DNA of 64,000 nucleotides from an uncultured Candidatus Saccharibacteria bacterium (GCA_964387275.1 CAYLVW010000002.1:63286-127285); one strand, 5' to 3'; shown: positions 82 to 48,034, counted from the stretch's first letter. The notes: generated by a model not told the origin, from the letters alone. Numbers and translations are program-made.

Positions 82-156
82 TGGAGGCCTGGGCGGGAAT
101 CGAACCCGCGTATACAGGTTTTGCAGACCCGTGCCTTACCACTTGGCTACCAGGCC
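82..156 (-). tRNA. tRNA-Cys (anticodon GCA), CCA encoded
   Basis: Reverse complement reads GGCCTGGTAGCCAAGTGGTAAGGCACGGGTCTGCAAAACCTGTATACGCGGGTTCGATTCCCGCCCAGGCCTCCA. It has a 7-bp acceptor stem, a D-arm, an anticodon loop CT-GCA-AA, a T-arm GCGGG/TTCGATT/CCCGC, and a 3' CCA. Confidence 0.85.
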
Positions 157-1522: not shown

Positions 1523-2101
1523 CAACGGGTGCCAATCTAAAACGTCCGGTCTAAGGTGTTTAATTCTAGTGACAATCTCCGTATAAGAATCTGTCATACC
1601 AAGTCTTGAATAGTAATTAGCTGTGGTAACTAGGACGCCTAAGTCATTGGGTACATAAGAAGTAAGTGCCTCCGACTTCTCGGCGAACAAATCAAGATAT
1701 TTGTAGTCAAGATTTTTAGCAGTTACAGGATGTGTAAGATCAGTAATTGTTAAATAAAAATAAACAGGAAGGGTATTTCTTAAAGTAGCAAGATTGGTTG
1801 GATTTAGTTTTATAGCTAAGTCTAAAGCATCTACTGCTGAACTTTTATAAACAGGGGACATTTCTCTATCCATAGCAGAAGCATACAATAGCAGATGCGC
1901 CCTGGTTTTGAGGTAGGAGGGTTCAAAAGGATTGAGATTTGTGGCATTTTCACTAAAACTTAACCCTAGAAGTACTTCTTTATTTTTTATCAGAGTGTCT
2001 GCCGCAAAATCAAATGAATCAGCAACAAAAAAAGTGACTCCGATTACAACCACCAGCATATAAATAGCACTTATCAATAAAAAAACTATTTTTTTAGACA
2101 T
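1511..2101 (-). CDS. Hypothetical membrane-anchored (N-terminal TM) protein, co-transcribed with the Wzy-like gene
   Basis: The start is trimmed to MSKKIVFLL (TM helix), so the track ORF carries a 30-aa unsupported N-extension. The CDS overlaps the stop of the upstream ORF by 8 nt. Confidence 0.45.
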   Translation of the reverse strand: MSKKIVFLLISAIYMLVVVIGVTFFVADSFDFAADTLIKNKEVLLGLSFSENATNLNPFEPSYLKTRAHLLLYASAMDREMSPVYKSSAVDALDLAIKLNPTNLATLRNTLPVYFYLTITDLTHPVTAKNLDYKYLDLFAEKSEALTSYVPNDLGVLVTTANYYSRLGMTDSYTEIVTRIKHLRPDVLDWHPLLVR

Positions 2102-3416
2102 GCTTAATTTCCAATCTAAATGATAACCCCAAGAATACCCAATATAGTAGTTCGTTATATGTGGAGGGCCAACCAAATATGTTACAAACAAAGTAACTTA
2201 CTAATACAGCTGAGTACAATAAATGTTTTTTCTTTAAAGCAAAGTAGCCAATACATAAATATAGGATCAAGCTTACCGCCCCCTGTTCTGTAAGTATTTC
2301 CAAATAATAGTTATGAGGTTTATTTAAAATATACTCCCATTCTGATGAGTAATTTAACTCAACAGGTCTGTAGGGTTGAAACGCGTAAGGAAAGGTCTCA
2401 GGACCACTTCCAATAAGAAAAACCTTTGCACTGGATAATGCCAGTCGTATGGAGCCTTCCCACATCCCAAGCCTAATACCACCAGTATCAGAGTAGACAT
2501 AGTTAGAATCCGCATATACTCTAATAGTGGAGGTTACAAGACCACTAAAATCCTCAAATACATCCAGCATCCTACCCTTAAAATAATTAAAATTAAGTAA
2601 AGAGATTATTAAGAAAGAAACCAGTACCCCCAATATCAAATATTTTTTTATTAATACAATTTTGTAATTCATGGCGAGTAACACTAAAATACCAACCCCA
2701 AAACCGATATAACCAGAATTGGAATATGTCCTCCAAAAGCTCAAAAAGGTAAATACTAGGTATATGAAGTAAAAGAAAACCTCTCTCTTATTTTCAGAGT
2801 TTAATAAAATATACATAGAAACTATTAGCACTGTAGAAAGATACATAGACAACCAGTTAGGTTGGCCAATGGTAGAATAAATTCTTGTTATTGAAGGATC
2901 TAGTATTTGTATAAGAGAGACTAAAACAACTGGTATGGAAGAAAGCGTCAAGACACGAATAAATCTTTTGGATTCAGAGTCAGACCATGTAACAGTGTAA
3001 ATAAAAATAGGCACGTATATGAATAAGGAAACCATACCACCGTTAAATCGTGAGAAATAGCCAAAAATAGAAGTATATAAATCTTGGGAAAAGGCTGTAG
3101 ATAGTATAAAAATACTAAAATATGCAAAAACAATCTGCATCCTTTTATCAAATTGTACGGAGATTTTTTGATTTATAGCATCCCATGCAAAAGATATTAC
3201 AAACAAACCCCCGACTAAGTACAAAAAAGTTACTTTTGGAAATTCATAGGATTCGTTTGTGAAACTAGTTGTAATAAAGGGCATAACCACAACAAGTAAA
3301 TAAAACAGTAGTTTTGTTGGATTTTTCAATAAAAACTTAATTGACTGTGCTGTAATCATGATAGTATTATCGTAGTAGTCCTGCTCTATGTTTTCAAGAA
3401 TATTAATAAAACTCAT
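2094..3416 (-). CDS. O-antigen ligase/polymerase (Wzy_C)-like polytopic membrane protein
   Basis: At least 10 predicted TM helices with a large loop, matching the general Wzy/WaaL architecture. The start codon is uncertain. Confidence 0.45.
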   Translation of the reverse strand: MSFINILENIEQDYYDNTIMITAQSIKFLLKNPTKLLFYLLVVVMPFITTSFTNESYEFPKVTFLYLVGGLFVISFAWDAINQKISVQFDKRMQIVFAYFSIFILSTAFSQDLYTSIFGYFSRFNGGMVSLFIYVPIFIYTVTWSDSESKRFIRVLTLSSIPVVLVSLIQILDPSITRIYSTIGQPNWLSMYLSTVLIVSMYILLNSENKREVFFYFIYLVFTFLSFWRTYSNSGYIGFGVGILVLLAMNYKIVLIKKYLILGVLVSFLIISLLNFNYFKGRMLDVFEDFSGLVTSTIRVYADSNYVYSDTGGIRLGMWEGSIRLALSSAKVFLIGSGPETFPYAFQPYRPVELNYSSEWEYILNKPHNYYLEILTEQGAVSLILYLCIGYFALKKKHLLYSAVLVSYFVCNIFGWPSTYNELLYWVFLGLSFRLEIKHV

Positions 3417-3969
3417 CGACCAAGCAATTGTACCTGCTGTGCTTCTAATAGCAGTTAGGGTTGTCTCTGTTCTTGCTATAGCAAACTACCTTCAACTTAA
3501 AATAACCTTAAGCGGAAGTGGGTTTAATATAACAGATCAAGCAAACGGAGCTTCTGTAACACCTGAAACATATGTAATTATTAACTCTTATTCTACTTTA
3601 TCCATAGTTATAACAATGGCGGTAATCTTATTTTTTATAATTACAAAGTCTTTGGTGCTTCATGACACACATATAAAACCTGGCCTTGCTGCCAAAATGT
3701 TCTCACTAAAACTTTCACACTTTATACAAAACTCGTTTCAAATATATTCTCAAGCACTAGTTTGGATGGCTTATCTATACATGTTAGGGGCTGTTTCTGG
3801 AGTAATGGCTCTAAATGGCACACTGTATACGTGGGTGTTTTTTGTGACACTGTCTTTAGCAATAATTTCTACTGTAGTATTTGTGATAGATGTTGAATAT
3901 GAGATTAATATGGATAAACTTGAAGTTCCCCAGTATGAAGAAGAGGAAACTCTAGTAACAATAAAATGA
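3388..3969 (+). CDS. Hypothetical 4-TM membrane protein
   Basis: ORF with four hydrophobic helices and an acidic C-terminus. Confidence 0.4.
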   Translation: MFSRILIKLIDQAIVPAVLLIAVRVVSVLAIANYLQLKITLSGSGFNITDQANGASVTPETYVIINSYSTLSIVITMAVILFFIITKSLVLHDTHIKPGLAAKMFSLKLSHFIQNSFQIYSQALVWMAYLYMLGAVSGVMALNGTLYTWVFFVTLSLAIISTVVFVIDVEYEINMDKLEVPQYEEEETLVTIK

Positions 3970-4241
3970 AAAAAATAAAGGCTATGCTTAAAATATCAAT
4001 AAACTCAATGCTGCTTCTTTTATTAAGTTCTTTTGTGGCCCTACCTGCAGTATCAATGGGAATGTTTAATATAGAGTCTTCTGCCTCAAGTGTACTATCC
4101 TCTACCAGCGCCAGAGAATCCACACCGACAATAACTGAGCAAAAACAAGTGTATGAACCAGAAGTAAAGACTCTTCAGGAAGAGCTACCTTTAATACCCA
4201 CAGCAGCGGAAACAACTGAAACATCATCAACTACAAACTAA
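3966..4241 (+). CDS. Small secreted Ser/Thr-rich protein
   Basis: It has a signal-peptide-like N-terminus (LLLLLSSFVALPAVSMG) followed by a S/T-rich low-complexity region. Its start is coupled ATGA-style to the upstream stop. Confidence 0.35.
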   Translation: MKKIKAMLKISINSMLLLLLSSFVALPAVSMGMFNIESSASSVLSSTSARESTPTITEQKQVYEPEVKTLQEELPLIPTAAETTETSSTTN

Positions 4242-4242
4242 T

Positions 4243-5187
4243 TTATAATGTTGGGTAAAGATAAATAATACCAAGGATGGAAAGCCCCCAAAGTACTATA
4301 GATGCCAGTAGTGGGAAATCTGAGAGCAGTACCCTCTCTGGAGACTCACCTTCTTCCTTCTCATATATAACATAGAGGTACCTTGCAACACCATATATCA
4401 CAAACGGAATTGTTAACATCATCCACCTTGGGCTACTAAGAATGGAGGGTAGTATATCTTTTAACCTATCAGTGGTTGTGTCGGGAGATATCTGAAAAGC
4501 AAACAATGAGTAGGTAATAATACATAAACTTGAGGACATAGAAATCATACTGTCTAAGAGAGTGTCTGGGTAGTGACGTAGTGTTTGTCTAGTAGACCCT
4601 TCTTCAATTAATTTCATATGTTTTTTAAGAAGAGTTCTTTCGGACCGTCTTTTACCAAAAGCTAGCAATAAAGATAATCCGATAGTTGCTAAAATCAACC
4701 AAGAGGATAGAGAGGTGTTGGTGGCAAACCCACCTGCGAACACTCTCAAAACAAAACCAGACCCTACAGCTAAAGAATCAAGAATAATTACATTCCTTAA
4801 ATACAGTGAGTAAGTTAGCTGAAGTATTATATAAATCATTAAAGCAACGGTGAAGAAAGTTCCTACACTAAACATACCAAAGTACAAACTAGATAGCATA
4901 AGAACAAAAGCGACAATCCAAGCTAATTTCTCTGAAAGTTTGCCAGAAGCAATAGGTCTATTTTTCTTTACAGGGTGTAGTCTGTCTTTAGGAGCATCTA
5001 TAAGATCATTCATTATATAGGTGGCAGACGAAACAAGACAGAAAACTAAAAATGCTGTTAAAGCTTGCGAAAATACCTTTTCATCAAAAAGATTCCCAAA
5101 AAATAGAGGGGCTGCAAAAAGGGAAAAGTTTTTCAGCCATTGACGAGGCCGCACTGTCCTAATAATTTGATACAGTTTTTCAGTCAT
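4243..5187 (-). CDS. UbiA-family prenyltransferase, decaprenyl-phosphate phosphoribosyltransferase (DPPRS)-like
   Basis: Contains NDLIDAPKDRLHPVKKNRPIASG, which is the NDxxDxxxD motif plus an RPIA(S/A)G segment, and has multiple TM helices. The start is placed at the internal MTEKLYQ (ATG at 5187), which leaves a 7-nt gap to the upstream gene. Confidence 0.65.
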   Translation of the reverse strand: MTEKLYQIIRTVRPRQWLKNFSLFAAPLFFGNLFDEKVFSQALTAFLVFCLVSSATYIMNDLIDAPKDRLHPVKKNRPIASGKLSEKLAWIVAFVLMLSSLYFGMFSVGTFFTVALMIYIILQLTYSLYLRNVIILDSLAVGSGFVLRVFAGGFATNTSLSSWLILATIGLSLLLAFGKRRSERTLLKKHMKLIEEGSTRQTLRHYPDTLLDSMISMSSSLCIITYSLFAFQISPDTTTDRLKDILPSILSSPRWMMLTIPFVIYGVARYLYVIYEKEEGESPERVLLSDFPLLASIVLWGLSILGIIYLYPTL

Positions 5188-6973
5188 TGTTACTATGATA
5201 TGGGTTTTCTCCGGTACATGCAAATTCGTAAGACCTGTAATCCCTATGCTCACTGCGTAAATACTTTATCTGCTTTAGGTACTTAAATCTCTCCCTGCGG
5301 AAGTAAGAAAACCTTGTACCTAGTTCTGACTCCACTTCACACAGTTTTTTCATAAACAACTGATCCAATTTTATTAAATTGTTAATAGATTTGGGCAAAA
5401 CCAATTTAAAGTAACTTTCAACAGAAATACTATTGTATCTAGAGTAATAGGACCTAACCACATTAACACCGTGTGAGGTATCATCAAAATAGTCGCTTAA
5501 GTCATCGAGATACTGCCTAATAATGAGTTGTATATCAAATAGGCAGGAAAAAACATTCGATATTGCGCAACGAGAAGAAAAAATGTAGTAGATAATAAAC
5601 CTGGATGAAATAGACGCCAGCTTACCTTTACTTAATAATGCCAACATCAACTTATTTATACCTGGGGCAACAATACCTATAAATTGATACTCAAAAGTTA
5701 AAGCTTTAATACAAGACACTAAGAAACGCTGGAAACTTTTGTGAGAATATTTATCTAAAACTTTTGAAGAGTAATCTAAATATGATTTCATGTAGTCCTT
5801 ATACATCAAAGATGTCACAAATATATTTCCTTTTGATTCATCCAAAAAATTATCAAGATCCGTAAATAAAGAAAATCCAACTACATTTAACATAGCTAGT
5901 GTATCTACCATATCTTTCGGTATAGAATTTCCCACTTCCCCAGGAAATGAGTTAAACAAATAGGTCGGCTCCATAAAACTATTAACCATACCGGTAGAAA
6001 TTTCTATAGGTAGGGTAGGTTTTACGATAAATTTTTGATGGTGGTTAATAAGTATTTTGCGGCACCTATTTTCCGCGGTAATTATCGAATTTTTATGTAT
6101 TAAAAGCATTTTTGCTGCTGTATCAACTGCAAACGAACCTACATAGGTATTAACACCGCCGACACTTCTTTCTATAAACAAACTAATAGGCAACTCCCCA
6201 CATGCGACAAAATTAGGATCACGCCGTAAATTATTCAGTGTGTTGCTATACAAGGGTGTAAATCTCTTAAGAAACTGTAAAGATAATAATAAATATGTGG
6301 TTTCAGTTTTATCTAAATTGGCTTTATTACTCAAGGCATTCTCAATTATGCTAAACAGCTTCGAATTACTTTTGTTGGTCAAAACTTCTGAAACTCTCGA
6401 TAGTAAAAAAACCTTAAAACTTAGGTTGCTATAGTACTTTGACTCTAAAGAACCGTTTTGAACTAACCTATTTAAAAATTTAATTAACCCCTCTGGGTAC
6501 AACTTACTCTTGATCAAAGTGTATAAAATGTTAGCGTTAACAAAAAGATCTGGATCTTCTTGGTTTTTGGTAATCCAAGTGTGATAAGGACCTCCAAACT
6601 CTATTGAATTTTTTAACAACAATTCTATGTAATCCCAACGTCTATTATTTAATAAATCAAGCCCATATATTCCGACAAAAGTGTCATCTAAATCATCTGG
6701 ATAAATAGGGTTTTCAAAATGGTAATTCAGGGTTAGTTTATGCTTGATATAAGTTTGAGTGATCTTATGTTTAAGTTTCTTGTACAAGGCGCTGTCTTCA
6801 AACCCAGAATCTCTTAGGAGCATTAATACTAAGTAATTAATAAAAGCATTTGAAGTTACCTCAGCACCAAAATTCACACGCATACTGATGGATTCAAATA
6901 CACCAGAAGAATTAGCTTTGGTAGAAAGTAAATTATATAACTCAGTTAACAATCGGTTGTCTGTGTACATCAA
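5180..6973 (-). CDS. Hypothetical 597-aa protein with a class II terpene cyclase-like DxDDT motif (alpha/alpha-toroid-like)
   Basis: IYPDDLDDTFVGIYGL aligns residue-for-residue with the squalene-hopene cyclase active-site segment YYPDVDDTAVVVWAL. There are no TM helices, and QW repeats are not clearly recognisable. Confidence 0.4.
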   Translation of the reverse strand: MMYTDNRLLTELYNLLSTKANSSGVFESISMRVNFGAEVTSNAFINYLVLMLLRDSGFEDSALYKKLKHKITQTYIKHKLTLNYHFENPIYPDDLDDTFVGIYGLDLLNNRRWDYIELLLKNSIEFGGPYHTWITKNQEDPDLFVNANILYTLIKSKLYPEGLIKFLNRLVQNGSLESKYYSNLSFKVFLLSRVSEVLTNKSNSKLFSIIENALSNKANLDKTETTYLLLSLQFLKRFTPLYSNTLNNLRRDPNFVACGELPISLFIERSVGGVNTYVGSFAVDTAAKMLLIHKNSIITAENRCRKILINHHQKFIVKPTLPIEISTGMVNSFMEPTYLFNSFPGEVGNSIPKDMVDTLAMLNVVGFSLFTDLDNFLDESKGNIFVTSLMYKDYMKSYLDYSSKVLDKYSHKSFQRFLVSCIKALTFEYQFIGIVAPGINKLMLALLSKGKLASISSRFIIYYIFSSRCAISNVFSCLFDIQLIIRQYLDDLSDYFDDTSHGVNVVRSYYSRYNSISVESYFKLVLPKSINNLIKLDQLFMKKLCEVESELGTRFSYFRRERFKYLKQIKYLRSEHRDYRSYEFACTGENPYHSNND

Positions 6974-8243
6974 GTGGAAAGTTCAGTTTAAATTTAGTTC
7001 CCCATGCTCCAGATTCATATGTAATGTCACCGTGAAAATGCTTTTGCATTATTTCTCTACATACAGAAAGCCCAAGGCCTGTACCGCCTACCGCAAGCTT
7101 GGTGGAATAGAATAAGTCAAAAACCCTGTCCCCGATCTCAGAACTTATCCCACAACCATTATCATAAACTTCAATTATTAATAAATCTTTAATACAGACA
7201 AACGAAACCTTAATAATGTTTTGACTCTGAGTAGATAACTTAAAGGAGTCTATAGAATTACTGAGTAGATTTTTCACTAACTGAAAAAACTTTACTGAAT
7301 TTCCATAAAGCTTTGGTGTAAATGTGGCATCAACTAGTACAGTTACCTTATTAGCCTTTATCTGATTCTTTAGAATAACAAGCACATTATCTACCTCAAC
7401 CATAGGAGCAAATAACTCGCTGCTGTCAATACAAGATACCTGTTTTCTAGCTGAATCTAGAAAATTTCTTAACTTACCCATATACTCAATGGTCGTAGAA
7501 ATGTCTTGATGTACAGATAGGTCGAGGTTTTTAGTTCGCAAGGCATTTGTGGATAAATTTTCTAAGCTCAAACTTACAGAAGTAAGTAAGTTAGATAGAT
7601 CGTGAAACAAACCTGAAGTATTTTTACCAACTTCAACCAGATTATTTATCTTGTTTATTTGTTCTGCTTTTAAGTACCTAACCTCTTCAGATTTTTTAGC
7701 CACAAGGTTCTCCAACATCTTATTTTGCTCTATCAAAAAATCTTGGAACTCTTTAGATCTTAGATATAAAGAATTTATTTTTCTTCTTGAATACCAGGAC
7801 AAAGAAGCTATAAATATTAATAATAAACCCACTACCAAAGCATCGCCAATATCAAACTTATCCTGTAACCACGAGCTATCATATAAAAGAATTCCATTAA
7901 ATTGGAGGTAGGAAATAAGACTAAGATAAATCCCAGTTAGGAGCGTTAAAACAAAAGATGCAGATATATCAAAAAGGATACTGGTTAGGGTTATTGTTAA
8001 CAGAAACAGTAGAGTACTTAGTGGAAGTAAAGACCCCCATTTCGCTGCAACCAAACTGGAAGTGATAAATAAAACTAATATAAGAAAACTCTTAACAAAT
8101 TTAAGATAACCCAGTTGCCCCAAAACATACATACAAATAAAAACTAAGGTAAATAATAAGTTGGTATTGGGATCTATACCTCGGAAGTCATAACTATTAA
8201 ATATTTGGTTATAAAGAGTGGAAATATAACAAAACGAGGACAA
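6942..8243 (-). CDS. Sensor histidine kinase with an N-terminal polytopic (5-6 TM) sensor domain
   Basis: H-box is FHDLSNLLTSV. HATPase G-box is GGTGLGLSVCREI. A coiled-coil linker is present. Confidence 0.8.
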   Translation of the reverse strand: MSSFCYISTLYNQIFNSYDFRGIDPNTNLLFTLVFICMYVLGQLGYLKFVKSFLILVLFITSSLVAAKWGSLLPLSTLLFLLTITLTSILFDISASFVLTLLTGIYLSLISYLQFNGILLYDSSWLQDKFDIGDALVVGLLLIFIASLSWYSRRKINSLYLRSKEFQDFLIEQNKMLENLVAKKSEEVRYLKAEQINKINNLVEVGKNTSGLFHDLSNLLTSVSLSLENLSTNALRTKNLDLSVHQDISTTIEYMGKLRNFLDSARKQVSCIDSSELFAPMVEVDNVLVILKNQIKANKVTVLVDATFTPKLYGNSVKFFQLVKNLLSNSIDSFKLSTQSQNIIKVSFVCIKDLLIIEVYDNGCGISSEIGDRVFDLFYSTKLAVGGTGLGLSVCREIMQKHFHGDITYESGAWGTKFKLNFPLDVHRQPIVN

Positions 8244-8552: not shown

Positions 8553-9221
8553 TTAAATAACTTTATACCTATAACCAAACCCATACACTGTATCAATTGG
8601 ATCAATACCCCGATATAAAAACTTCTTTCGAAGATTACGTATGTGCACATCGACAGAGTTTGAAGACATATCAATATTGTTTTCCCATAGCTTATTAAGC
8701 AGTTCATCCCGCTGAACAATACGTCCCTTGTTTTGCACAAGGTACTCTAGTATTCCGTACTCTTTTGGAGTAAACCTAACCTCTACATTATTTACACAAA
8801 CAGTTTTAGCGGTTGTGTCAATTTCTACTCCAAACGCCTTTAACACATTTGTCGTATCGAAGTTTTTGACTCTTCTATTAACAGCTTTAATCCTTGATAT
8901 TAACTCCGCGAAGACGAAAGGTTTAGTGATATAGTCATCAGCACCAAGATCTAAGCTTGAAACCTTATAACCCAGCTCTGATTTAGCTGTTAACATTATT
9001 ATCCCTACCCTGGAGCAAGAAGTCTTTATCAATTTGCACACCTCTGTTCCGCTCATATCAGGCAACCCTATGTCAACCAAGACTATGTCGTAGCTATTCA
9101 TCTGCGAATAATAGACTCCGTCAGAACCATTATCTACGTGGTCAACTATAAAGTGGTTTTTAAGCCCAAGCTTTGTCTGTGTCGCGACATCAAACTCGTC
9201 TTCTATTAATAAAACCCTCAT
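8553..9221 (-). CDS. OmpR/PhoB-family response regulator
   Basis: Receiver domain MRVLLIEDE...DIVLVDIGLPDMSG...KPF, with a winged-helix C-terminus (RFTPKEYGILEYL..VDVHIRNLRKK). Confidence 0.85.
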   Translation of the reverse strand: MRVLLIEDEFDVATQTKLGLKNHFIVDHVDNGSDGVYYSQMNSYDIVLVDIGLPDMSGTEVCKLIKTSCSRVGIIMLTAKSELGYKVSSLDLGADDYITKPFVFAELISRIKAVNRRVKNFDTTNVLKAFGVEIDTTAKTVCVNNVEVRFTPKEYGILEYLVQNKGRIVQRDELLNKLWENNIDMSSNSVDVHIRNLRKKFLYRGIDPIDTVYGFGYRYKVI

Positions 9222-9829: not shown

Positions 9830-12697
9830 TTGATTATGTCAAAAAAGAAAACTGCACTAAATGAATCGCAAAAACGAGCGATAGAATTTGAGAAAGGCCC
9901 CCTACTAGTTGTAGCAGGTGCAGGTACAGGTAAAACAAAAGTAATAACTGAACGAATAAAATATCTTATCGAAAAAAAAGATGTAAAACCAGAGGAAATA
10001 CTTGCACTTACTTTTACAGAAAAAGCTTCGCAAGAAATGCTGGAGAGGGTTGGAGACATAATGCCCCTGGGTTATCAAGAACCATACATTTATACGTTCC
10101 ATTCTTTTGCAGATAGAATACTAAAAACTGAGGGAATTGAAATGGGACTTGATACATCCTATAAGATAATTCCCGACACCAGTCAGTGGTTACTTTTTAG
10201 AAAAAACCTATTCAACTTTAAACTTTCCTATTTTAGACCATTGGGAAATCCAACTAAATTTATTTCAGCAATTCTAAAATTCATCTCAAGACTTCAAGAT
10301 GAAAATATATCCCCAGCTAAGTTCACAGAATTTGTTAAAAACTCTAAAACTATAGAACCTGATGAAATAAACAGATGGGAAGAATTAAGTGCTGTATATG
10401 AAAAATACCAAGCGCTCAAAATAGCTCAATCGAAATTGGACTTTGGAGACCTTATAAATAAAACCATTGAGTTATTTCATACAAGACCAAATATATTAAG
10501 AAAATATCAAAATCAATTCAAACACATACTTGTAGACGAATTCCAAGACACCAACTATTCACAGTACGAGCTCATTAAACTACTGTACCCTATAACAGAA
10601 TCAACCAATGTAAGAAGCCTGGTTGTTGTAGGAGATGATTCACAATCAATATATAAATTTAGGGGCGCTGCAATTTCTAATATACTAGAATTCCAACAAG
10701 ACTACCCAAACGCAAACATGATAACGTTAACTCAAAACTATAGATCAAACCAACCTATACTGGATACATCTTACAATTTGATACAAAACAATAACCCGGA
10801 CACTTTAGAATCAAAACTAGGTATTTCAAAAAAACTCAAAAGTGCAAACCAAGAAGAATCTGTGAAACCTCAAATATATCAAGCTAATACACTTGAGGAA
10901 GAAGTGGAAGTGGTAATAGCTAAAATTTTGGAAATTCTTGGTAAAGAACCCAACTATACATATAAAGATTTTGCGATTCTATCAAGAGCAAATTCACATT
11001 TAGATCCGTTTGTTCTTGGGCTTAAAAAATATGGAATACCTTATCAACTTGTAGGAAATAGAGGTTTATACGATCAAGAAGAAATCAGAAACATCATTGC
11101 CTTAGTAAGGCTGATTGTTGATGTAGAAGATAATATCAATCTCTTTAGAGCTTTAAACATAAACGTTTTTGGAATACCTTTTGAGGACATCTCAAAAATA
11201 CTAAACCAAGCCAAATATAATAAATCCTCGATATGGAGTGTGTGTCAAAAATCGGAAAACCCAAAAATTAATAATTTTGTTGAGATAATCAACTCTTACA
11301 GACAAAAGATAACAAAATACCTGCCCTCAGAACTTATCTATGAACTTCTATACAGTACTAACTACTTAAAAAGTTTTACGGAGTCTGAGTCAATTGAAAA
11401 TGAACTGGCATTAAAAAATCTGGATATATTTTATAATATTGTAAAAAGATTTGAGGTGGAGTACAGACAAGATATAAGAGAAAACCCCACACTACTAAAC
11501 CTTGTAGAGCATTTGGATTTGATGATAGAAGCGGGAGATAATCCAGCGCAAGCAGAAATAGAAGATGTAGATACAATAAATCTGTTAACAACACATGCAA
11601 GCAAGGGCTTAGAGTTTAAAGTTGTTTTTATGATTAATTTAGTAAGTGATAGGTTTCCCTCTAGAAATAGAAGTGATGTTATTAACATACCGGATGAACT
11701 CATTAAAGAAGTGTTACCTGAAGGAGATCCCCATATACAAGAAGAACGTAGATTATTTTATGTAGGTATGACAAGGGCCCAAAAGTACCTATACATGACT
11801 CTTGCAAAAAACTATGGCGGCAAAAGAGACAAAACTCCCACAGGCTTCTTACAGGAAACAGGGCTAAAAATTACAGAAATTGATAGTAACGAAATAAACA
11901 AGACTGATTCACAAAATAGTTTGTTCGGTACTAAAACAAACTACAGAGAATCTGGTATGGACACACCATATGAACCCAGTTTTGTAAGCTATACTCAAAT
12001 ATCCAACTACAAAACTTGCCCTCTACAATATAAATACGGCTATGTATTAAAAATACCCGGGTCCCCTAGCCACGCTTTGAGTTTTGGAAATACTATACAT
12101 ACAACTTTAAAGGAGTTTCACACGCAACTATCCTCCGGAAAAAACGTAACCCTAAATGAATTACTAGAACTATATGATAAATTTTGGGATCCAATCGGTT
12201 ACATATCAGAGGAACACAAAAAAGAACGCTACCAAAGTGGAATCAACATACTCACTAAGTACTATGAAAAAGCCATGAAAGAAAAAACTAAACCAAAGGC
12301 CCTGGAACAATCCTTTAATATACGTATTGATGGAATGCGAATGTATGGAAGAATTGACCGTATAGACCCATTGCCTGAAGGCGGAGTAGAAATAATTGAC
12401 TATAAAACTGGTAGTCCTAAAGATCAAAAAGAAGTAGATAGTGATGATCAAGTAGCTGTCTATGCAATTGCTGCTAAAGAAGCTTTAAAACTAGACCCAA
12501 AAAAACTGTCTTTATATTTTGTAGAAACAGATCAAAAAATTTCTACTTCTAGAACAGAAAAACAGTTAGAAGACAAAAAAAAGGAAATAGCTGAAGAAAT
12601 TAGAAAAATAAGAAGTGGGGATTTCCACGCAACTCCCGGTATGCATTGTAACTACTGCGACTATAAACATATATGTCCGCATGCTTATAAAAACTAA
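9830..12697 (+). CDS. UvrD/PcrA-family SF1 helicase fused to a C-terminal PD-(D/E)xK (RecB/Cas4-like) nuclease with a 4-Cys cluster
   Basis: Walker A is AGAGTGKT, Walker B is VDEFQDTN, and UvrD motifs follow. The C-terminus has DRIDRID...EIIDYKTG plus cysteines at CPLQYKYGY and CNYCDYKHIC. Confidence 0.8.
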   Translation: MIMSKKKTALNESQKRAIEFEKGPLLVVAGAGTGKTKVITERIKYLIEKKDVKPEEILALTFTEKASQEMLERVGDIMPLGYQEPYIYTFHSFADRILKTEGIEMGLDTSYKIIPDTSQWLLFRKNLFNFKLSYFRPLGNPTKFISAILKFISRLQDENISPAKFTEFVKNSKTIEPDEINRWEELSAVYEKYQALKIAQSKLDFGDLINKTIELFHTRPNILRKYQNQFKHILVDEFQDTNYSQYELIKLLYPITESTNVRSLVVVGDDSQSIYKFRGAAISNILEFQQDYPNANMITLTQNYRSNQPILDTSYNLIQNNNPDTLESKLGISKKLKSANQEESVKPQIYQANTLEEEVEVVIAKILEILGKEPNYTYKDFAILSRANSHLDPFVLGLKKYGIPYQLVGNRGLYDQEEIRNIIALVRLIVDVEDNINLFRALNINVFGIPFEDISKILNQAKYNKSSIWSVCQKSENPKINNFVEIINSYRQKITKYLPSELIYELLYSTNYLKSFTESESIENELALKNLDIFYNIVKRFEVEYRQDIRENPTLLNLVEHLDLMIEAGDNPAQAEIEDVDTINLLTTHASKGLEFKVVFMINLVSDRFPSRNRSDVINIPDELIKEVLPEGDPHIQEERRLFYVGMTRAQKYLYMTLAKNYGGKRDKTPTGFLQETGLKITEIDSNEINKTDSQNSLFGTKTNYRESGMDTPYEPSFVSYTQISNYKTCPLQYKYGYVLKIPGSPSHALSFGNTIHTTLKEFHTQLSSGKNVTLNELLELYDKFWDPIGYISEEHKKERYQSGINILTKYYEKAMKEKTKPKALEQSFNIRIDGMRMYGRIDRIDPLPEGGVEIIDYKTGSPKDQKEVDSDDQVAVYAIAAKEALKLDPKKLSLYFVETDQKISTSRTEKQLEDKKKEIAEEIRKIRSGDFHATPGMHCNYCDYKHICPHAYKN

Positions 12698-12698
12698 C

Positions 12699-13652
12699 CT
12701 ATAAAGGCAGGTTGAGTAGGCCGCTCATACTTTTTAATACAGGATTATAGATTTTTATGTAGGGGTCAGGATACTGTGCCTCGTACCCATTAAATTTTCT
12801 CTTAAAATGGGTCAACCCCTCCCAGTTCATTGTATACAGCGGGAATCTAGGATCAGAAACTCCCTCAAAGTCGAAAATTTTCATACCCAGTTGTTTAAAA
12901 TAAAGTATAGTTTCCCATGTAAGTAGATAACCACTTTTATCCTTTTGACCGTGATCAGATGTACCCCCATGTAGATACCAAACCGCCTTCCCGTTAATCA
13001 GATGAAACTTTGCACCCGTAAGCTCCCCCAAAGAATCATATGAAAAAGCAAGCACACAGTTATCCAAAAACTCTGTAGCTTTTTTAAGGTTTTCGGTAAG
13101 AGTAGGTACATAGAACTTCTTTTTTAAACCTGTGCTTGCGGCTAGTTTTTGAAATACCTCAACTTGCTCTTTGGTTGGGTTTTTAATAATTTTAACAACT
13201 GTACCTTCACGGCGTGCTCGATTGATAGAGTACTTCGCGCTATGAGAAAGCCTAGACCACAGGTCAGTCTCAGACAAAGTTAAGTCCATAAACACAGTAG
13301 AAGGCGGTATGAGGGGAAACAAGCTTTTCTGATAACCATTTTTTACTAGCAATCCAACCTCTTGCATAATACTAGGTTCTATTTTTACAAAGGCTAAATT
13401 GTATTTCTTTGCAATCAGATCAATTTCAGACATATCGGATTCATTCAAAGGGTGGGGTCTCTGAATCTTGGCCACTTTCATAAAAACAGTATTTATTATC
13501 TGAACAAAAATACCACTACTGGTAATTTGAGTCTTCCATCCTAGGGTATTTAAAAAGTTTGACCAGCCCTGAGTCTGTCTTAAGTCAGTGTAGTTAAAAT
13601 CTAAAGTTGTTCCTTTGAGCTCTTCTAACGAATAAATCTTAGTATCTTCCAT
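12699..13652 (-). CDS. FemAB-family peptidoglycan interpeptide-bridge aminoacyltransferase (paralog 2)
   Basis: WYLHGGTSDHGQKDKSGYLLTWETILYFKQLGMKIFDFEGVSDP matches the FemX/FemAB core (YxxGGS...NxxxxW.I..a...G...yDfwG). Confidence 0.65.
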   Translation of the reverse strand: MEDTKIYSLEELKGTTLDFNYTDLRQTQGWSNFLNTLGWKTQITSSGIFVQIINTVFMKVAKIQRPHPLNESDMSEIDLIAKKYNLAFVKIEPSIMQEVGLLVKNGYQKSLFPLIPPSTVFMDLTLSETDLWSRLSHSAKYSINRARREGTVVKIIKNPTKEQVEVFQKLAASTGLKKKFYVPTLTENLKKATEFLDNCVLAFSYDSLGELTGAKFHLINGKAVWYLHGGTSDHGQKDKSGYLLTWETILYFKQLGMKIFDFEGVSDPRFPLYTMNWEGLTHFKRKFNGYEAQYPDPYIKIYNPVLKSMSGLLNLPL

Positions 13653-14566
13653 CTCATCTCATTCGCAAAACTAAATGTATTATAAGCGGGTTCGTTCAAT
13701 ATAAAATCATATGAATCCATATACTCAACAAACCTACCACCAAACCTAAGCTTGAAATTAGTAAAACCAAACCAAGGATCCAAAGTATTGCCAGGGTCGC
13801 TGGAAGCCCCCCACATATCAAACGCAGTGCAATTATTAGCCTTACCAAATTTTATGACTTCCCAAGCAAGAAGTGTGCTGGGAGAAAGGTTTCTATGCTG
13901 ATCAGAAGATCCCCCATAGGGATAATATAAAACCCCATCATACAAAAATAGCATCCAAGAAGCTAGTGGAGTCGTACCCTTAAAAGCAGTTAAAATTTTA
14001 ACCATTCCCTCCTTACCTAAAATTTCCCATATCATCTTGTAGTATCCTTTTGGATGAATAAAGTATTTCTGCCTCTCTGCAGTTTCTGATAGAAGCTTAT
14101 AAAATATCTCAAAATCCTCAGCGTTCTTACCCTCTACCACAATCACAGAATTCTTTTGAGCATACTTAATATTGTACCTATGCTTATGGTGCATATTAAC
14201 AAGTAATGTTTCTTCAGATGGAGTTATATCTAATAAAATGTTGTGTTTAGCAAATGTGTTCTTTTTTGCTTTCACACATCTCTCCTCAAAAATACTTACA
14301 ATAGACTTTATATTCGGATCGGTAGTAAGAATATTAGGAACGTCAAAATTTATCGCAATACAATTGTTTTCTATAAGTGAAGCTTTTACTTTCTCAAAAT
14401 TAATATTATGTGGGTTTACTTTAGGACAATATGCGTAGTAGTAATTTGTGAAAGGAATTTTATGTTTTGTGTACTGAATGCCTTCTACTAATACAGATGG
14501 GGTGCCATACTGAGATTTAAAATTTCCCCAAATCTGAGATTGAACTATGTGATCCGACATAAGCAC
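13625..14566 (-). CDS. FemAB-family peptidoglycan interpeptide-bridge aminoacyltransferase (paralog 1)
   Basis: QSQIWGNFK...VLYYPYGGSSDQHRNLSPSTLLAWEVIKFGKANNCTAFDMWGASSDP. It overlaps paralog 2 by 28 nt. Confidence 0.7.
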   Translation of the reverse strand: MLMSDHIVQSQIWGNFKSQYGTPSVLVEGIQYTKHKIPFTNYYYAYCPKVNPHNINFEKVKASLIENNCIAINFDVPNILTTDPNIKSIVSIFEERCVKAKKNTFAKHNILLDITPSEETLLVNMHHKHRYNIKYAQKNSVIVVEGKNAEDFEIFYKLLSETAERQKYFIHPKGYYKMIWEILGKEGMVKILTAFKGTTPLASWMLFLYDGVLYYPYGGSSDQHRNLSPSTLLAWEVIKFGKANNCTAFDMWGASSDPGNTLDPWFGFTNFKLRFGGRFVEYMDSYDFILNEPAYNTFSFANEMRWKILRFIR

Positions 14567-21822: not shown

Positions 21823-22089
21823 ATGTCAAAAGTCCTGAAAGTAACATTCCCAGAAAATTGCATTGGCTGTGAGATGTGTGTAATGGAGGCTCAAAAGCAA
21901 ATAGGCAAAGTTGGGCTAAATGGAGCGCTAGTTAGAGTACTAAAATCGAAGTCTGAAACCGGGCTAGATTTCTTAGTAGAAGTCGACCCACAAGTCAATG
22001 AGCTTGATATAAAAAAAATAGCAAGAATATGCCCTAAAAGTGTATTTACAATAGAGGAAAAGGAAACCGACGATGGCCTTACTAGCTAA
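21823..22089 (+). CDS. Single-cluster [4Fe-4S] ferredoxin-like protein (Pyrococcus Fd-like architecture)
   Basis: CIGCEMCV...(about 50 aa)...ICPKSVFTIEEKE, a CxxCxxC...CP arrangement with an ITIEE-like end. Confidence 0.5.
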   Translation: MSKVLKVTFPENCIGCEMCVMEAQKQIGKVGLNGALVRVLKSKSETGLDFLVEVDPQVNELDIKKIARICPKSVFTIEEKETDDGLTS

Positions 22090-22966
22090 AAAAGTTTTGT
22101 ACATAAATCTCGAAGAAAAAACTTACGAATTAAAATCATTAACTGATTTATATAAATATATAGGTGGTGTAGGAATTGGGATAAAGTTGCTTCAAGAAGA
22201 GGCACAATATGACCCGATAATTTTCTCAACAGGACCTTTGAATGGGTTTTTCCCCTATGCTTCAAAAACATCGGTAGTATTAAACAGTGATGGGGTGATT
22301 GAGGATATTTATATAGGAGGTACTTTATCAAGCAGGATAAAATTTGCTGGACTGGACTCAGTAGTTTTAAGAGGCAGGTCTGAGGAACCTATAACCATAG
22401 AGATAATTGATGATGTTGTCAATTTTCATACCCCAAATATAGATGTTACAACACTAGGGTTACCCGGAAAACGAAGTACACTTACTTGGGACAATAAGGA
22501 TAACTCAAAAACAGATACAATCGTAGAGACAGGCCCAGAAACCAACGAAAAAAAGTTCTTACTTGATGGATATTTTTCAGCCCCAGAAAAGATACTAGAA
22601 AAAAAACTCTTACTAAAAAATATAAAAGGGTTGTCTATCACAGGTAACAAAACGATAGACATAAAAGACACAGAGGAATATGACAGACTGTACAAATTAC
22701 TCCTAGGAAGGATAAAAGATATGTGGATAGAGCCAAACAAATACCCATCTTGTAGCGGATGCCCATTAGGGTGTGTGGCATCCAAAAGAGGTGAAATTGG
22801 CGGAAATATAATTACCCACTCTCTTGTAGCATGTTCTTTCGCTGAAGGAATATATTCGGATCTTGGAATAACTTTTGCGTGCTTAAATTCACTTGGATAT
22901 CACTACAGACATGAAGATATACAAGCACTGCCGAAACTTATCGACCAAATCCTTAGAAAATTTTAG
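22073..22966 (+). CDS. Truncated aldehyde:ferredoxin oxidoreductase (AOR)-family protein: N-terminal AFOR_N domain plus a CxxCxxxC cluster motif, lacking the tungstopterin catalytic domains
   Basis: KVLYINLEEKTYE, YIGGVGIGIKLL, PIIFSTGPLNG and KFAGLDSVVLRGRSEEPITIEI parallel P. furiosus AOR residues 1-130. CSGCPLGC matches the AOR 4Fe-4S ligand spacing. The protein is only 297 aa. Confidence 0.5.
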   Translation: MALLAKKVLYINLEEKTYELKSLTDLYKYIGGVGIGIKLLQEEAQYDPIIFSTGPLNGFFPYASKTSVVLNSDGVIEDIYIGGTLSSRIKFAGLDSVVLRGRSEEPITIEIIDDVVNFHTPNIDVTTLGLPGKRSTLTWDNKDNSKTDTIVETGPETNEKKFLLDGYFSAPEKILEKKLLLKNIKGLSITGNKTIDIKDTEEYDRLYKLLLGRIKDMWIEPNKYPSCSGCPLGCVASKRGEIGGNIITHSLVACSFAEGIYSDLGITFACLNSLGYHYRHEDIQALPKLIDQILRKF

Positions 22967-39980: not shown

Positions 39981-41738
39981 ATGAGTAAAAAAAATAAACT
40001 ATTTGAAGTAACAGAAGGTACAACAAGCGCAGAAGTAAGAGAACGTACTACGTTACTTGAAACGTCTGAAGACGAAATAAAATATGAACCCAACGCTATA
40101 GCAGAAAGAATATTAGAACGCATAGAAAAAATAAAAACAGGCAATACAGCCTTGGACAAAGCACTCCAAGATGCGGCTGATAAATTGGACGCACATGTAC
40201 ACGGACTAAATAGGTATAGCGAAGGAAGTGAAAAAAGTAGAGATGCGTACCATGAGCTTGAGAAGGATAACCCAGAAAAACTCCAAGAGGTATTTGGAAC
40301 CTACAAAACAATGGTAACAGACCACTTACTAATTGTAGAAAAGCTGTTAGATCAAACAGAAACAAATCCCCAGGGAGCCGCACTAGCAGTAGAACTTATA
40401 ACTGCTTCCACTGAAAACAGAAGAGGAAAAGAAGAGGAAACAAGAAAAAGGTTAAGAGAGTTTGGCATAAGCCAAGGGTTACCTCAAGGCGGAGAAGAGC
40501 AAGTAGTCGAACTACTTAATAAAATATCAGACGGTAGAATTGAATCCTTTGCAGACTATCTTGAGACAAGTGGCTTTGATTCTATTACAGTGGAAAACTC
40601 AGCAAACACCCATAGGGAAAACCTAGGAAAAATTATTAGTCTATCGGAGCGATTTGTAGAACCAAAGGATTATGATGATATATTTGCAACAACCACAAAA
40701 GTAAAAACTAAAGTTAAGGTAGAAAAAACATCCACCGAAGCCCACACAGATGAAACACTGAATAATTTAACAGTTGAACAAATACGTGAACGTATTGCAA
40801 AGCAATGGGATACAGAAAACCAAGACGGCAGTAACCTAATAGACACAACAAGTGGACCAAAACTAGCAGAGCGAACATTTCTCGGGGGAGAAAAGCTAAG
40901 GAAACCACGACAGTTTGCACAAGTTTTTGAAAGGTATATCACTACAAAAGATAAGGATGATATAACCAGATACGATAGAGTTGATGTACCTGTAATAACC
41001 TTGTACGCCGAAAGACAATTAAGTGATTTCACCAAATCAGAAAAAATCTACTCAAATAGAAAAGACCCCGTTGTAAGGATCCCTGTTCTTAATTTTGATC
41101 CAAAAGATTTTGATGAAATAGCCTTTATGAATGAGATGTTAAAAATGGCTCGAAATAACCCTGATGGCAGCTTCGATGTATTTGTAGCAAATGATAGTGG
41201 TAAAGCTGAAACATTTAGAGTGAATGCAGAAACGTATAACGCAATGAGGTATGTGGTACAACGATCAGTGGAATCCCATGCAAAAAAGGGCATAACTTAT
41301 AATCCAGAAGAGATACTTAAAAAGGGTTTAAAAAAGCTAGGACCAAATGAAACGACAACTGAAGAAGAAATAGAGATTGAAACAGAAACAATTACTACAG
41401 AAAGTCAAAACCCTAACGAATGGGTAAATCACAAGCGAGCTCTAGCTAGAATGAAAAGTTTAAGGTCTATTGCAGGCAAAAAATTAGATTTTACGGAAGA
41501 AGAAATGGATCAAACCGGAGAGTCTCTTACCAATTTGGAAAGGATATATACTGAATTTACATCACACATAGGAAGAGTGGAATCGTACTACTATATAGCC
41601 CAACAAAGATTAAAAACTCTTAGTGGAGTTTCTAAAGGACATCCTAGATACGAAGAAGGCTTGGAGATCTACTTACAAAACTATGTGTTGGAACTTGGAG
41701 AAATGTCCATAACATTAAAAAATGCTACAACAACTTGA
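39981..41738 (+). CDS. Hypothetical acidic cytoplasmic protein (585 aa)
   Basis: Start is 4 nt after the upstream stop. No recognisable domain. Confidence 0.4.
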   Translation: MSKKNKLFEVTEGTTSAEVRERTTLLETSEDEIKYEPNAIAERILERIEKIKTGNTALDKALQDAADKLDAHVHGLNRYSEGSEKSRDAYHELEKDNPEKLQEVFGTYKTMVTDHLLIVEKLLDQTETNPQGAALAVELITASTENRRGKEEETRKRLREFGISQGLPQGGEEQVVELLNKISDGRIESFADYLETSGFDSITVENSANTHRENLGKIISLSERFVEPKDYDDIFATTTKVKTKVKVEKTSTEAHTDETLNNLTVEQIRERIAKQWDTENQDGSNLIDTTSGPKLAERTFLGGEKLRKPRQFAQVFERYITTKDKDDITRYDRVDVPVITLYAERQLSDFTKSEKIYSNRKDPVVRIPVLNFDPKDFDEIAFMNEMLKMARNNPDGSFDVFVANDSGKAETFRVNAETYNAMRYVVQRSVESHAKKGITYNPEEILKKGLKKLGPNETTTEEEIEIETETITTESQNPNEWVNHKRALARMKSLRSIAGKKLDFTEEEMDQTGESLTNLERIYTEFTSHIGRVESYYYIAQQRLKTLSGVSKGHPRYEEGLEIYLQNYVLELGEMSITLKNATTT

Positions 41739-45573: not shown

Positions 45574-45975
45574 TGGTGGAGATGGCGAGAATCGAACTCG
45601 CGTCTTGAAAACCCAAAAACAAAAAACTACAAGTTTAGCTGTACTTAAGTGTCAGAAAATCATGGAGTACAACAACCTAAAATCTTCCTAAGACCTTCTT
45701 CTGTGAAAGGTGGAATTACATCCTAAAAATCAAAGTGGGTCAAACTCTAATTTCGCATCCGAAAATTATAAAGTTGTGGTCTTACATCTTTCGGAGGAAG
45801 TAAGGCAACTTAACCTAAGCTCTTTGAGCTGTGGTTAGGCTAAAGCACCGGCGTAAGCTGGTACTAAAGCTTCTGATTCAACATCAGCATTTATTTTTTG
45901 CAAATTTTTTGAAGCAGTTTTGCAACTTCTACTTGTTTCTGAGATTGGGAAATCCAATCAAAGCCGATCATCCCC
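45574..45975 (-). ncRNA. ssrA: tmRNA (SsrA)
   Basis: The 5' end GGGGATGATCGGCTTTGATTGGATTTCCC resembles E. coli GGGGCUGAUUCUGGAUUCGACGGGAUUUGCG. The 3' end GCGAGTTCGATTCTCGCCATCTCCACCA has a tRNA-like T-arm and CCA. The internal tag ORF GCT GAT GTT GAA TCA GAA GCT TTA GTA CCA GCT TAC GCC GGT GCT TTA GCC TAA translates to ADVESEALVPAYAGALA*. Confidence 0.85.
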
Positions 45976-47967: not shown

Positions 47968-48034
47968 TCTGAGGAAATTTTACAATAAAAACAAAATATC
48001 AACAACAACCTACTTATATACTATAATTCAGGGT

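Follow-up and report, generated by a model that had tools for sequence, protein, structure and literature searches.

Does an uncultured member of the Saccharibacteria encode a terpene cyclase, and if so, what kind of enzyme is it? The question arises from a stretch of 64,000 nucleotides from an uncultured Candidatus Saccharibacteria bacterium (GCA_964387275.1, CAYLVW010000002.1:63286-127285), which we refer to as the window. An initial annotation, made from the sequence alone, had proposed that one gene in the window encodes a protein with the DxDDT motif of class II terpene cyclases. This gene, which we call X, is an open reading frame (ORF) at 5180..6970 on the minus strand (all coordinates are positions in the window) and encodes 596 amino acids if translation begins at an ATG. 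An alternative start, a TTG one codon upstream, would give 5180..6973 and 597 amino acids; we number residues by the 596-residue form. We lean toward the view that X is a soluble terpenoid synthase-like enzyme with two domains, beta and then alpha, and that it is under the control of a two-component system.

X has no hydrophobic stretch capable of crossing a membrane. By itself, X had no matches in Pfam, NCBIfam, or the sequences of the Protein Data Bank (PDB). A word-indexed protein search, even with a profile, found just two relatives besides a protein that is identical to X (P0001): P0002, which is 76% identical and syntenic, and P0003, which is 24% identical. We then ran an exhaustive HMMER search with a profile of X, P0002, and P0003 against 1.84 billion representatives (clusters at 50% identity). 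This search identified 1329 proteins or clusters with E <= 1e-3, including 552 with E <= 1e-30. Because nearly all of these relatives are 600-660 amino acids long and match the profile from end to end, the two-domain architecture is fixed. Residue conservation was analyzed across 151 representatives of the family.

When one genome per species was scanned, 244 species genomes proved to encode relatives of X, and we retrieved 80 genome loci from this set. Most of the 80 are explicitly labeled as belonging to the candidate phyla radiation (CPR), under the names Saccharibacteria, Paceibacterota, Nomura-, Taylor-, Magasanik-, Levy-, Shapiro-, and Doudnabacteria, or "Patescibacteria group." The X family is found almost only in CPR bacteria, and it is a hallmark of the CPR rather than an oddity. 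The initial annotation had considered this chemistry to be unexpected in a CPR-like genome, but the family is typical of the CPR. About 16 of the 80 loci have the automatic metagenome-assembled genome label "uncultured Gammaproteobacteria" (L008, L009, L032, L038, L057, and L060 are among the loci without a CPR label), and single loci are labeled as Bdellovibrionales, Verrucomicrobiia, Dormiibacterota, or Methylomirabilota. Since these loci have the same order of response regulator, histidine kinase, and X as the others (see below), they could be mislabeled or misbinned CPR contigs, or they could represent a genuine spread beyond the CPR. In public databases, most members of the family are annotated as "hypothetical protein" and a few as "terpene cyclase/mutase family protein." Some members (P0172, P0194, P0197, P0216, P0231, P0234, P0035, and P0042) have a precomputed match to PF28380.1, which might be a recently curated model that covers part of the X family.

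The N-terminal half of X (residues ~1-315; 6026..6970, minus strand) resembles the beta domain of class II terpene cyclases, which is an alpha/alpha barrel. When we compared the family's profile to the sequences of solved structures, it matched the cyclase domain of AsDMS, with E = 3.4e-17 for a profile of 54 sequences and 4e-18 for a profile of 75 sequences; weaker matches were to fungal AstC (1e-3) and then to squalene-hopene cyclases (SHCs). AsDMS is the drimenol synthase of Aquimarina spongiae and is, like AstC, a HAD-TCbeta enzyme (PDB 9mhs and 9m7d; PMC12232559, PMC12365925). In the profile alignment, PDDLDDT of the X family is in register with PDDLDTT of AsDMS, where the general acid is the aspartate after the leucine in DLD(323)TT (PMC12232559). 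D95 of X corresponds to this residue and is therefore predicted to be the general acid.

X contains IYPDDLDDTFVGIYGL, and YPDDLDDTF occupies residues 90-98 (6677..6703). The DxDD(T) motif itself, D93-L-D95-D96-T97, is encoded at 6680..6694 (minus strand). P91, D93, and D95 are present in all 151 representatives, while T97 is present in 147 and D96 in 141, so the motif that first drew attention to this gene holds up as a feature of the family. Another group of conserved residues in the beta domain, GGPYHTW (126-132), D141, and VNAN (144-147), is encoded at 6530..6595 (minus strand): G126, G127, P128, Y129, W132, D141, and N145 are found in 149-151 of the representatives. T131 and Y179-Y180 are also invariant or nearly so.

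An AlphaFold model of X (mean predicted local distance difference test score [pLDDT] of 73 and predicted template modeling score of 0.72) leads to the same family of enzymes. The matches of the full model in Foldseek included AsDMS (E = 2.9e-6), 8pak (3.8e-5), MstE (2e-4), and the SHC of A. acidocaldarius (7e-4), as well as 8paj, which is a single-domain SHC-like protein, and bacterial class II di- and sesquiterpene cyclases. The initial annotation's expectation of a cyclase-type toroid is thus borne out by structure prediction. X itself has no Pfam match; member-by-member scans found SQHop_cyclase_C in 15 of 54 and 32 of 75 members (47 of 129), and TIGR01787 in 22 of the 54. We did not find a gamma domain or the canonical beta-gamma didomain, with its active site at the interface, in X; instead, one barrel is followed by an unrelated helical domain. 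With just a single barrel, X is of the rarer beta-only type, like MstE and AsDMS. As judged from profiles and models, we consider it solid that the N-terminal half is a beta-type barrel of the class II terpene cyclases and that its DxDD acid is conserved.

The initial annotation missed the second domain, which has two aspartate-rich motifs. Residues ~316-596 (5183..6025, minus strand) are predicted to form an all-helical domain that appears to be a remote relative of the isoprenoid-synthase (alpha) fold; the part that bears the motifs spans residues ~330-560. Motif A is D373-N374-F-L-D377 in X (5840..5854, minus strand) and DDFLD in the family's consensus. D373 and D377 are present in 150 of the 151 representatives; position 374 is D in 105 of them and N in 25, and E379 is found in most members. 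Motif B is D489-D490-L-S-D493-Y-F-D-D497 (5480..5506, minus strand), preceded by R485-Q486. Its form across the family is R/K485-Q486-x-x-D489-D490-x-x-D493-x-x-x-D497-x-x-x-G501, with Q486, D489, D493, and D497 in all of the representatives and D490 in 149. Motif B is compatible with both the DDxxD pattern of the second aspartate-rich motif (SARM) of polyprenyl synthases and the NSE/DTE pattern (ligands at i, i+4, and i+8). In class I terpenoid synthases, the metal-binding motifs lie at the C-terminal ends of long helices; both motifs of X are at the C-terminal ends of long helices as well, in the full-length model and in a model of the domain, and for motif A this is the helix 352-378. Other conserved features of the alpha domain are W426-E427, K/R449, and many aromatic residues.

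We built the separate AlphaFold model of the C-terminal domain from a 134-sequence alignment (pLDDT 73). When this model was compared to the PDB with Foldseek, all but one of the top ~50 matches were prenyltransferases or class I cyclases, including the prenyltransferase domains of fusicoccadiene, variediene, and copalyl diphosphate synthases, human and yeast geranylgeranyl diphosphate synthases (GGPPS), farnesyl diphosphate synthase from E. coli, and many class I cyclases. In addition, the full-length model of X aligned with plant beta-alpha synthases across ~580-650 columns. We also used hhalign to compare a profile of the C-terminal domain to 19 polyprenyl synthases that are encoded beside members of the family. 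The local alignment (P = 4e-4) placed motif B on the SARM (FQxxDDxxD). In the global alignment (P = 5.8e-5), motif A fell on the first aspartate-rich motif (FARM), K449-S lined up with the KT motif, and motif B was again on the SARM. As controls, the reversed synthase profile gave P = 0.3, a profile of the kinases gave P = 0.41, and the N-terminal domain compared to the synthases gave P = 0.33.

Whether the C-terminal domain could elongate prenyl chains is another matter. In the global alignment, the basic motifs by which synthases bind isopentenyl diphosphate (IPP) and the allylic diphosphate (the GK..R and Rrg positions) face residues of the alpha domain that are not conserved, and K/R449 and R/K485 are its only conserved basic residues. 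Because the IPP-binding motifs of true synthases are missing, the alpha domain probably does not carry out chain elongation, and it is unlikely to be a chain-elongating synthase. PF00348 (polyprenyl_synt) is absent from the lists of Pfam families for the 129 members that were scanned; 7 of these members have weak matches to Terpene_syn_C_2, Terpene_synth_C, or SQS_PSY. We considered a relationship to squalene and phytoene synthases, but the 129 members gave just one weak match to SQS_PSY. We rejected matches of the profile search to LegK7 and p14, which were coincidences of short motifs. Given the alignments and models, we have moderate, not firm, confidence that the C-terminal half is a very divergent alpha-fold domain whose predicted metal and diphosphate site is intact.

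The genes around X also bear on its role. The initial annotation mentioned a two-component system beside the locus, but only as part of the scenery; it turns out to be the conserved partner of X. In the window, the first gene of the conserved unit encodes an OmpR/PhoB-type response regulator (8553..9221, minus strand; Response_reg and Trans_reg_C), and it is followed by a histidine kinase (6942..8243, minus strand; HATPase_c at 1.1e-20) with a multi-pass membrane block of ~150-190 residues at its N terminus. The 3' end of the kinase gene overlaps the start of X by 29 nt, and the ATG of X is 26 nt upstream of the kinase's stop codon. When 86 loci were searched by tblastn with the proteins of the window, a homologous kinase was directly upstream of X and on the same strand at 83 of them, and the regulator was upstream of X at 71. 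Clustering of the neighboring genes at 77 loci placed the kinase at -1 in 74 cases and the regulator at -2 in 53 cases, with another 14 at -3 or -4. The kinase gene and X mostly overlap or are separated by less than 60 nt; at the locus of P0003, too, the kinase overlaps X. Across the family, the kinases share an N-terminal hydrophobic block of ~190 residues, and its loops are short, which implies that a large external sensor domain is absent. In the window, the longest kinase ORF has 433 amino acids (from a TTG start), as compared to 469-498 at 76%-related loci (L004, 6620..8029, and L005, 6533..8029). Given this shorter ORF and the 309-nt gap to the regulator, the N terminus of the window's kinase may be shorter or may be miscalled. 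A Crp/Fnr-like gene (cyclic nucleotide-binding domain and helix-turn-helix) lies just upstream of the unit, at -3 or -4, at 9 of the 77 loci (for example, at L029, 2854..3534).

The other recurrent neighbor is a polyprenyl synthase gene (polyprenyl_synt; E = 1e-49 to 3e-58 in Pfam), which is at +1 on the same strand in 18 of the 77 loci (20 of 86 by tblastn). In NCBIfam, these synthases are most similar to short- and medium-chain synthases, with scores below the cutoffs. Examples lie at 7599..8663 of L013 and at 7840..8871 of L069. The recurrence of these synthases at +1 points to an isoprenoid substrate independently of any argument from the fold or the motifs of X.

Several observations weigh against our preferred reading. 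In the model of X, pLDDT drops below 50 in three places: residues ~79-91 and ~122-137, which are beside the catalytic motif, and the final 40 residues. R368 and R370 of AsDMS, which bind phosphate (PMC12232559), align with a conserved W and a conserved D in the X family, so the beta domain may or may not act on a diphosphate. For the alpha domain, the best Foldseek match had E = 0.029, with template modeling (TM) scores of 0.4-0.54 among the matches; the hhalign probability for the domain versus the synthases was ~35%; and the C-terminal profile found no relative among the sequences of solved structures at E <= 10. The tblastn analysis did not find a polyprenyl synthase in the 64-kb window. 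Finally, X itself is a long-branch member of the family: it is ~20% identical to most members, while typical members are 30-36% identical to each other. Six near-invariant residues of the alpha domain are altered in X (W366F, Y369F, D374N, W426F, H492S, and W494Y). The QW repeats that the initial annotation had suggested looking for are missing too: the pattern Q.{2,5}G.[WFY] has no matches in X or in P0002, whereas most other members have 1-3 QW-like motifs at conserved positions, so these motifs were lost from X. Every invariant acidic residue is retained in X, and comparison to the gene for P0002 gave a dN/dS (ratio of nonsynonymous to synonymous substitution rates) of 0.09-0.10 in each half, with dS near saturation. 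X is under purifying selection. Possibly, its specificity has shifted relative to the rest of the family.

How does this architecture compare to known terpene synthases? AsDMS is the closest relative of X by both profile and fold. It also has a single beta barrel without a gamma domain that is fused to a second, catalytic-looking domain, and its acid motif (DLDTT) is in register with DLDDT of X. However, the partner domain in AsDMS is an N-terminal HAD phosphatase, while in X it is a C-terminal isoprenoid-synthase-like domain. X also differs in that it has the canonical DxDD, has W and D in place of R368 and R370, and belongs to a family that is specific to the CPR and tied to a two-component system. 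MstE and other single-domain SHC-like cyclases (PDB 6sbb, 8pak, and 8paj) are stand-alone beta domains and are among the best fold matches of X, but they are single-domain proteins of ~350 amino acids instead of two-domain proteins. MstE has a DxD motif and acts on a meroterpenoid substrate that is not a diphosphate (PMC12324236).

The order of domains in X, beta and then alpha, is that of plant terpene synthases such as limonene/sabinene, abietadiene, and taxadiene synthases. Bifunctional enzymes of the abietadiene type combine DxDD and DDxxD chemistry in one chain, as the motifs of X would. This likeness is at the level of the fold only (TM ~0.3 and 10-12% identity). X differs from the plant synthases in that it lacks the gamma domain and in that its second metal motif is DDxxDxxxD instead of NSE/DTE. 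To our knowledge, the beta domain of the plant beta-alpha enzymes does not have DxDD. In fungi, PvCPS is described (PMC12393454) as a bifunctional copalyl diphosphate synthase with a class II cyclase and a prenyltransferase. Its pairing of a class II cyclase with an alpha-fold domain in one chain recalls X, whose predicted alpha domain has prenyltransferases as its nearest structural neighbors. However, the cyclase of PvCPS is of the beta-gamma type and its geranylgeranyl diphosphate (GGPP) synthase domain is fully canonical, while X lacks the basic motifs of the synthases and often has a separate synthase gene nearby. Neither AsDMS nor the plant synthases nor PvCPS unites all that is seen in X: a beta-only DxDD domain, an alpha domain that is divergent and has both DDxxD and DDxxDxxxD, confinement to the CPR, and coupling to a two-component system.

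A functional analogy, but no more than that, can be drawn to the C35 terpenoid pathway of Bacillus, in which YtpB, a large terpene synthase of class IB, is followed by SqhC, which is of class II. There, class I-type and class II steps on one long polyprenyl chain lead to a cyclic terpenoid that is associated with the membrane, but the two steps are carried out by separate proteins. We considered actual kinship to class IB enzymes because of a motif resemblance (DNxxD); DUF2600 was not among the Pfam families listed for members of the X family, so we kept this as an analogy only.

On the other side of X, the window differs from most of the family. The initial annotation noted a UbiA-family neighbor that resembles decaprenyl-phosphate phosphoribosyltransferase (DPPRS) and a Wzy-like polymerase, and both genes are present. 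The UbiA-family gene (4243..5187, minus strand; PF01040 at 1.5e-21) encodes a DPPRS-like membrane protein that is predicted to be a prenyl-phosphate phosphoribosyltransferase. It scores 228.9 bits against NF008978 (decaprenyl-phosphate phosphoribosyltransferase), which exceeds the cutoff of 207, and 231.2 against NF008977, just under the cutoff of 234. Like DPPRS of the Rv3806c type, it passes an NCBIfam equivalog cutoff and has both NDxxDxxxD and DxxxD (NDLIDAPKD at 4984..5010 and DTLLD at 4552..4566) along with at least seven hydrophobic segments. Unlike the Rv3806c system, there was no DprE1/DprE2-type epimerase among the window ORFs that were scanned. The UbiA gene starts at an ATG inside the end of X, with 8 nt shared by the two genes (ATGACTGA), and not 7 nt beyond the stop as originally described; the overlap equally indicates that the two genes are translationally coupled. 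The Wzy_C gene (2094..3416, minus strand; PF04932 at 1.3e-12) encodes an O-antigen ligase/polymerase-like membrane protein.

The association of X with these genes is not a property of the family. The UbiA gene, the Wzy gene, and the small membrane-protein genes next to them are found only in the window's own lineage (3 of the 86 loci, all from P0002), and UbiA is absent from the locus of P0003. In the window's lineage, the DPPRS-like gene occupies the slot that belongs to the polyprenyl synthase elsewhere in the family. This would put a polyprenyl-phosphate sugar-carrier step under the same control as X, but we do not regard it as a step in the pathway of X. The two small membrane-protein genes (3388..4241, plus strand) encode 193 amino acids, with ~5 hydrophobic segments, and 91 amino acids. 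They are convergent with the UbiA gene and end 2 nt short of its stop, have no match in Pfam, and are conserved only at the P0002 loci; they may belong with the UbiA and Wzy glycan genes. In mycobacteria, a PAP2 enzyme dephosphorylates the product of DPPRS. The only PAP2 phosphatase that we saw in the window (PAP2_3 superfamily; 55056..55982, minus strand; 2.7e-23) is 50 kb away from the DPPRS-like gene, so a link between them is speculative.

Could X do something else? It is possible, although we consider it unlikely, that only the beta domain is an enzyme. The alpha domain would in that case be a degenerate relic of an isoprenoid synthase, with a role in binding a diphosphate lipid or in docking X to the kinase or the membrane, and X would serve the two-component system as an accessory or in feedback instead of being a two-step synthase. 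Such a role would fit with X being nearly always in an operon with the kinase, often with overlapping reading frames; with the lack of the basic IPP-binding motifs in the global alignment; and with the lack of a detectable sequence relative among solved enzymes. However, the two motifs contain five acidic positions that are kept in 150-151 of the 151 representatives, along with Q486 and E427, and conservation of this kind typifies catalytic sites that bind metal, not docking surfaces. Also, dN/dS is as low in the C-terminal half as in the N-terminal half. Alternatively, the alpha domain could elongate chains. X would then be a fusion of a prenyltransferase and a cyclase, like PvCPS, in which the alpha domain elongates IPP and dimethylallyl diphosphate (for instance, to GGPP) and the beta domain cyclizes the product to a bicyclic diphosphate. 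PvCPS has its cyclase at the N terminus and its alpha domain at the C terminus, which is the order in X; the best fold matches of the alpha domain are the prenyltransferase domains of bifunctional synthases and human GGPPS; and both motifs have the DDxxD form of the FARM and the SARM and align with them. We nevertheless consider elongation to be quite improbable: the GGKR-type and RRG-type basic motifs have no conserved counterpart, Pfam's polyprenyl_synt was not seen in any of the 129 members scanned, and a complete synthase adjoins X at 18-20 loci, where it would be redundant.

The other two alternatives concern the pathway and the fold. If X acted with the DPPRS-like and Wzy-like proteins, then it might belong to a pathway for a pentose or glycan linked to polyprenyl phosphate, for example by modifying the lipid carrier. 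The 8-nt coupling of X and UbiA occurs in the 76%-identical relative as well as in the window, the DPPRS assignment passes a curated cutoff, and the window also has genes for LCP ligase, sortase, and MurJ, from which it is clear that polyprenyl carriers are used in the assembly of wall polymers. But the UbiA and Wzy genes are limited to one lineage, with 3 of 86 loci, and are absent at the P0003 locus and at all 80 genome loci, while the partners across the family are the two-component system and the polyprenyl synthase, which makes this scenario very improbable. It is even harder to credit that X is not a terpene enzyme at all and that the toroid is instead a glycoside hydrolase (the alternative that the initial annotation had raised; for example, a GH76-like enzyme with an adjacent pair of aspartates), a thioester domain, or a LanC-like binding module. 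Foldseek did report weak matches to GH76 mannanases (~0.07-0.1; 0.05-0.1 for these and MmpH together), MmpH, and the complement C3d/thioester domain, with E = 0.035-0.1 overall, and Pfam's TED_complement matched 12 of 54 and 25 of 75 members. However, class II cyclases are better matches by at least 4 orders of magnitude for the fold and by ~15 orders for the sequence profile. Neither the Pfam nor the NCBIfam scans turned up a recurrent glycoside hydrolase family, the acid motif lines up with that of the cyclases, and a polyprenyl synthase is a recurrent neighbor. We rejected the LanC-like and thioester-domain readings because the invariant columns do not include conserved Cys or His or CGEQ-type residues.

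The remaining genes of the window are consistent with a CPR-like organism that has a cell wall of the Gram-positive type. It encodes GAPDH, PGK, TIM, cyclophilin, KsgA, two UvrD-type helicases, and two FemAB-like proteins, as well as an LCP ligase, a sortase, MurJ, SpoIID, an M23 peptidase, DnaK, HrcA, and LepA. There is a tRNA-Cys gene at 82..156 (minus strand) and a tmRNA gene at 45574..45975 (minus strand), whose tag peptide is ADVESEALVPAYAGALA. At 9830..14566, a fusion of an AddA-like UvrD helicase and a PD-(D/E)XK nuclease (955 amino acids) is followed by two tandem FemAB-family genes; this arrangement is kept at the P0002 loci. Between the genes for PGK and TIM, an ORF of 297 amino acids (22073..22966, plus strand) has only a match to AFOR_N, the N-terminal domain of aldehyde:ferredoxin oxidoreductase (4.7e-22), and it looks like an odd, truncated insert in the row of glycolytic genes. 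A protein of 1138 amino acids (47906..51322, plus strand) has a C39-like peptidase domain at its C terminus as its sole recognizable part. Near it are large ORFs with no match in Pfam, at 39981..41738, 43499..45016, 46555..47967, and 57970..59631.

If X is a two-domain terpenoid synthase, as we favor, then D95 would protonate the terminal C=C of a polyprenyl chain to begin cyclization. The alpha domain would hold the Mg2+-diphosphate end of the same substrate or of an intermediate and would probably ionize it. The product would be a hydrophobic cyclic terpenoid destined for the membrane or the envelope, and the membrane-embedded kinase would set its synthesis. A more ambitious version of this idea, which we regard as doubtful, is that the CPR have a widespread, self-contained module in which the membrane-embedded kinase monitors either the bilayer or the terpenoid and, via the regulator, controls a hitherto unrecognized bifunctional class II/class I beta-alpha synthase that makes a cyclic, hopanoid-like membrane terpenoid. 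CPR bacteria scavenge most of their lipids.

The CPR, or Patescibacteria, are thought to be minimal in lipid and secondary metabolism, and terpene cyclases from these bacteria are undescribed in the literature that we searched. When full texts were searched for terpene cyclases or terpene synthases from Patescibacteria, Saccharibacteria, or the CPR, nothing relevant was returned, although the coverage was incomplete and this is only an absence of evidence; a recent structure-based survey of the domain configurations of terpene synthases does not mention Patescibacteria, Saccharibacteria, or the CPR. For annotation, our analysis gives a name and testable residues to proteins that are mostly labeled as hypothetical, and it flags a conserved unit of regulator, kinase, and enzyme. 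For enzymology, X would add a beta-alpha chain with a DxDD acid and two aspartate-rich metal motifs to the known combinations of domains. If true, a bacterial beta-alpha chain with both domains active would be relevant to how plant terpene synthases were assembled. For the organisms themselves, the extent of the family (more than 1300 clusters and 244 species genomes), the invariant catalytic-type residues, and the nearly obligatory position behind the kinase suggest that X may make a physiologically important envelope terpenoid of these epibionts.

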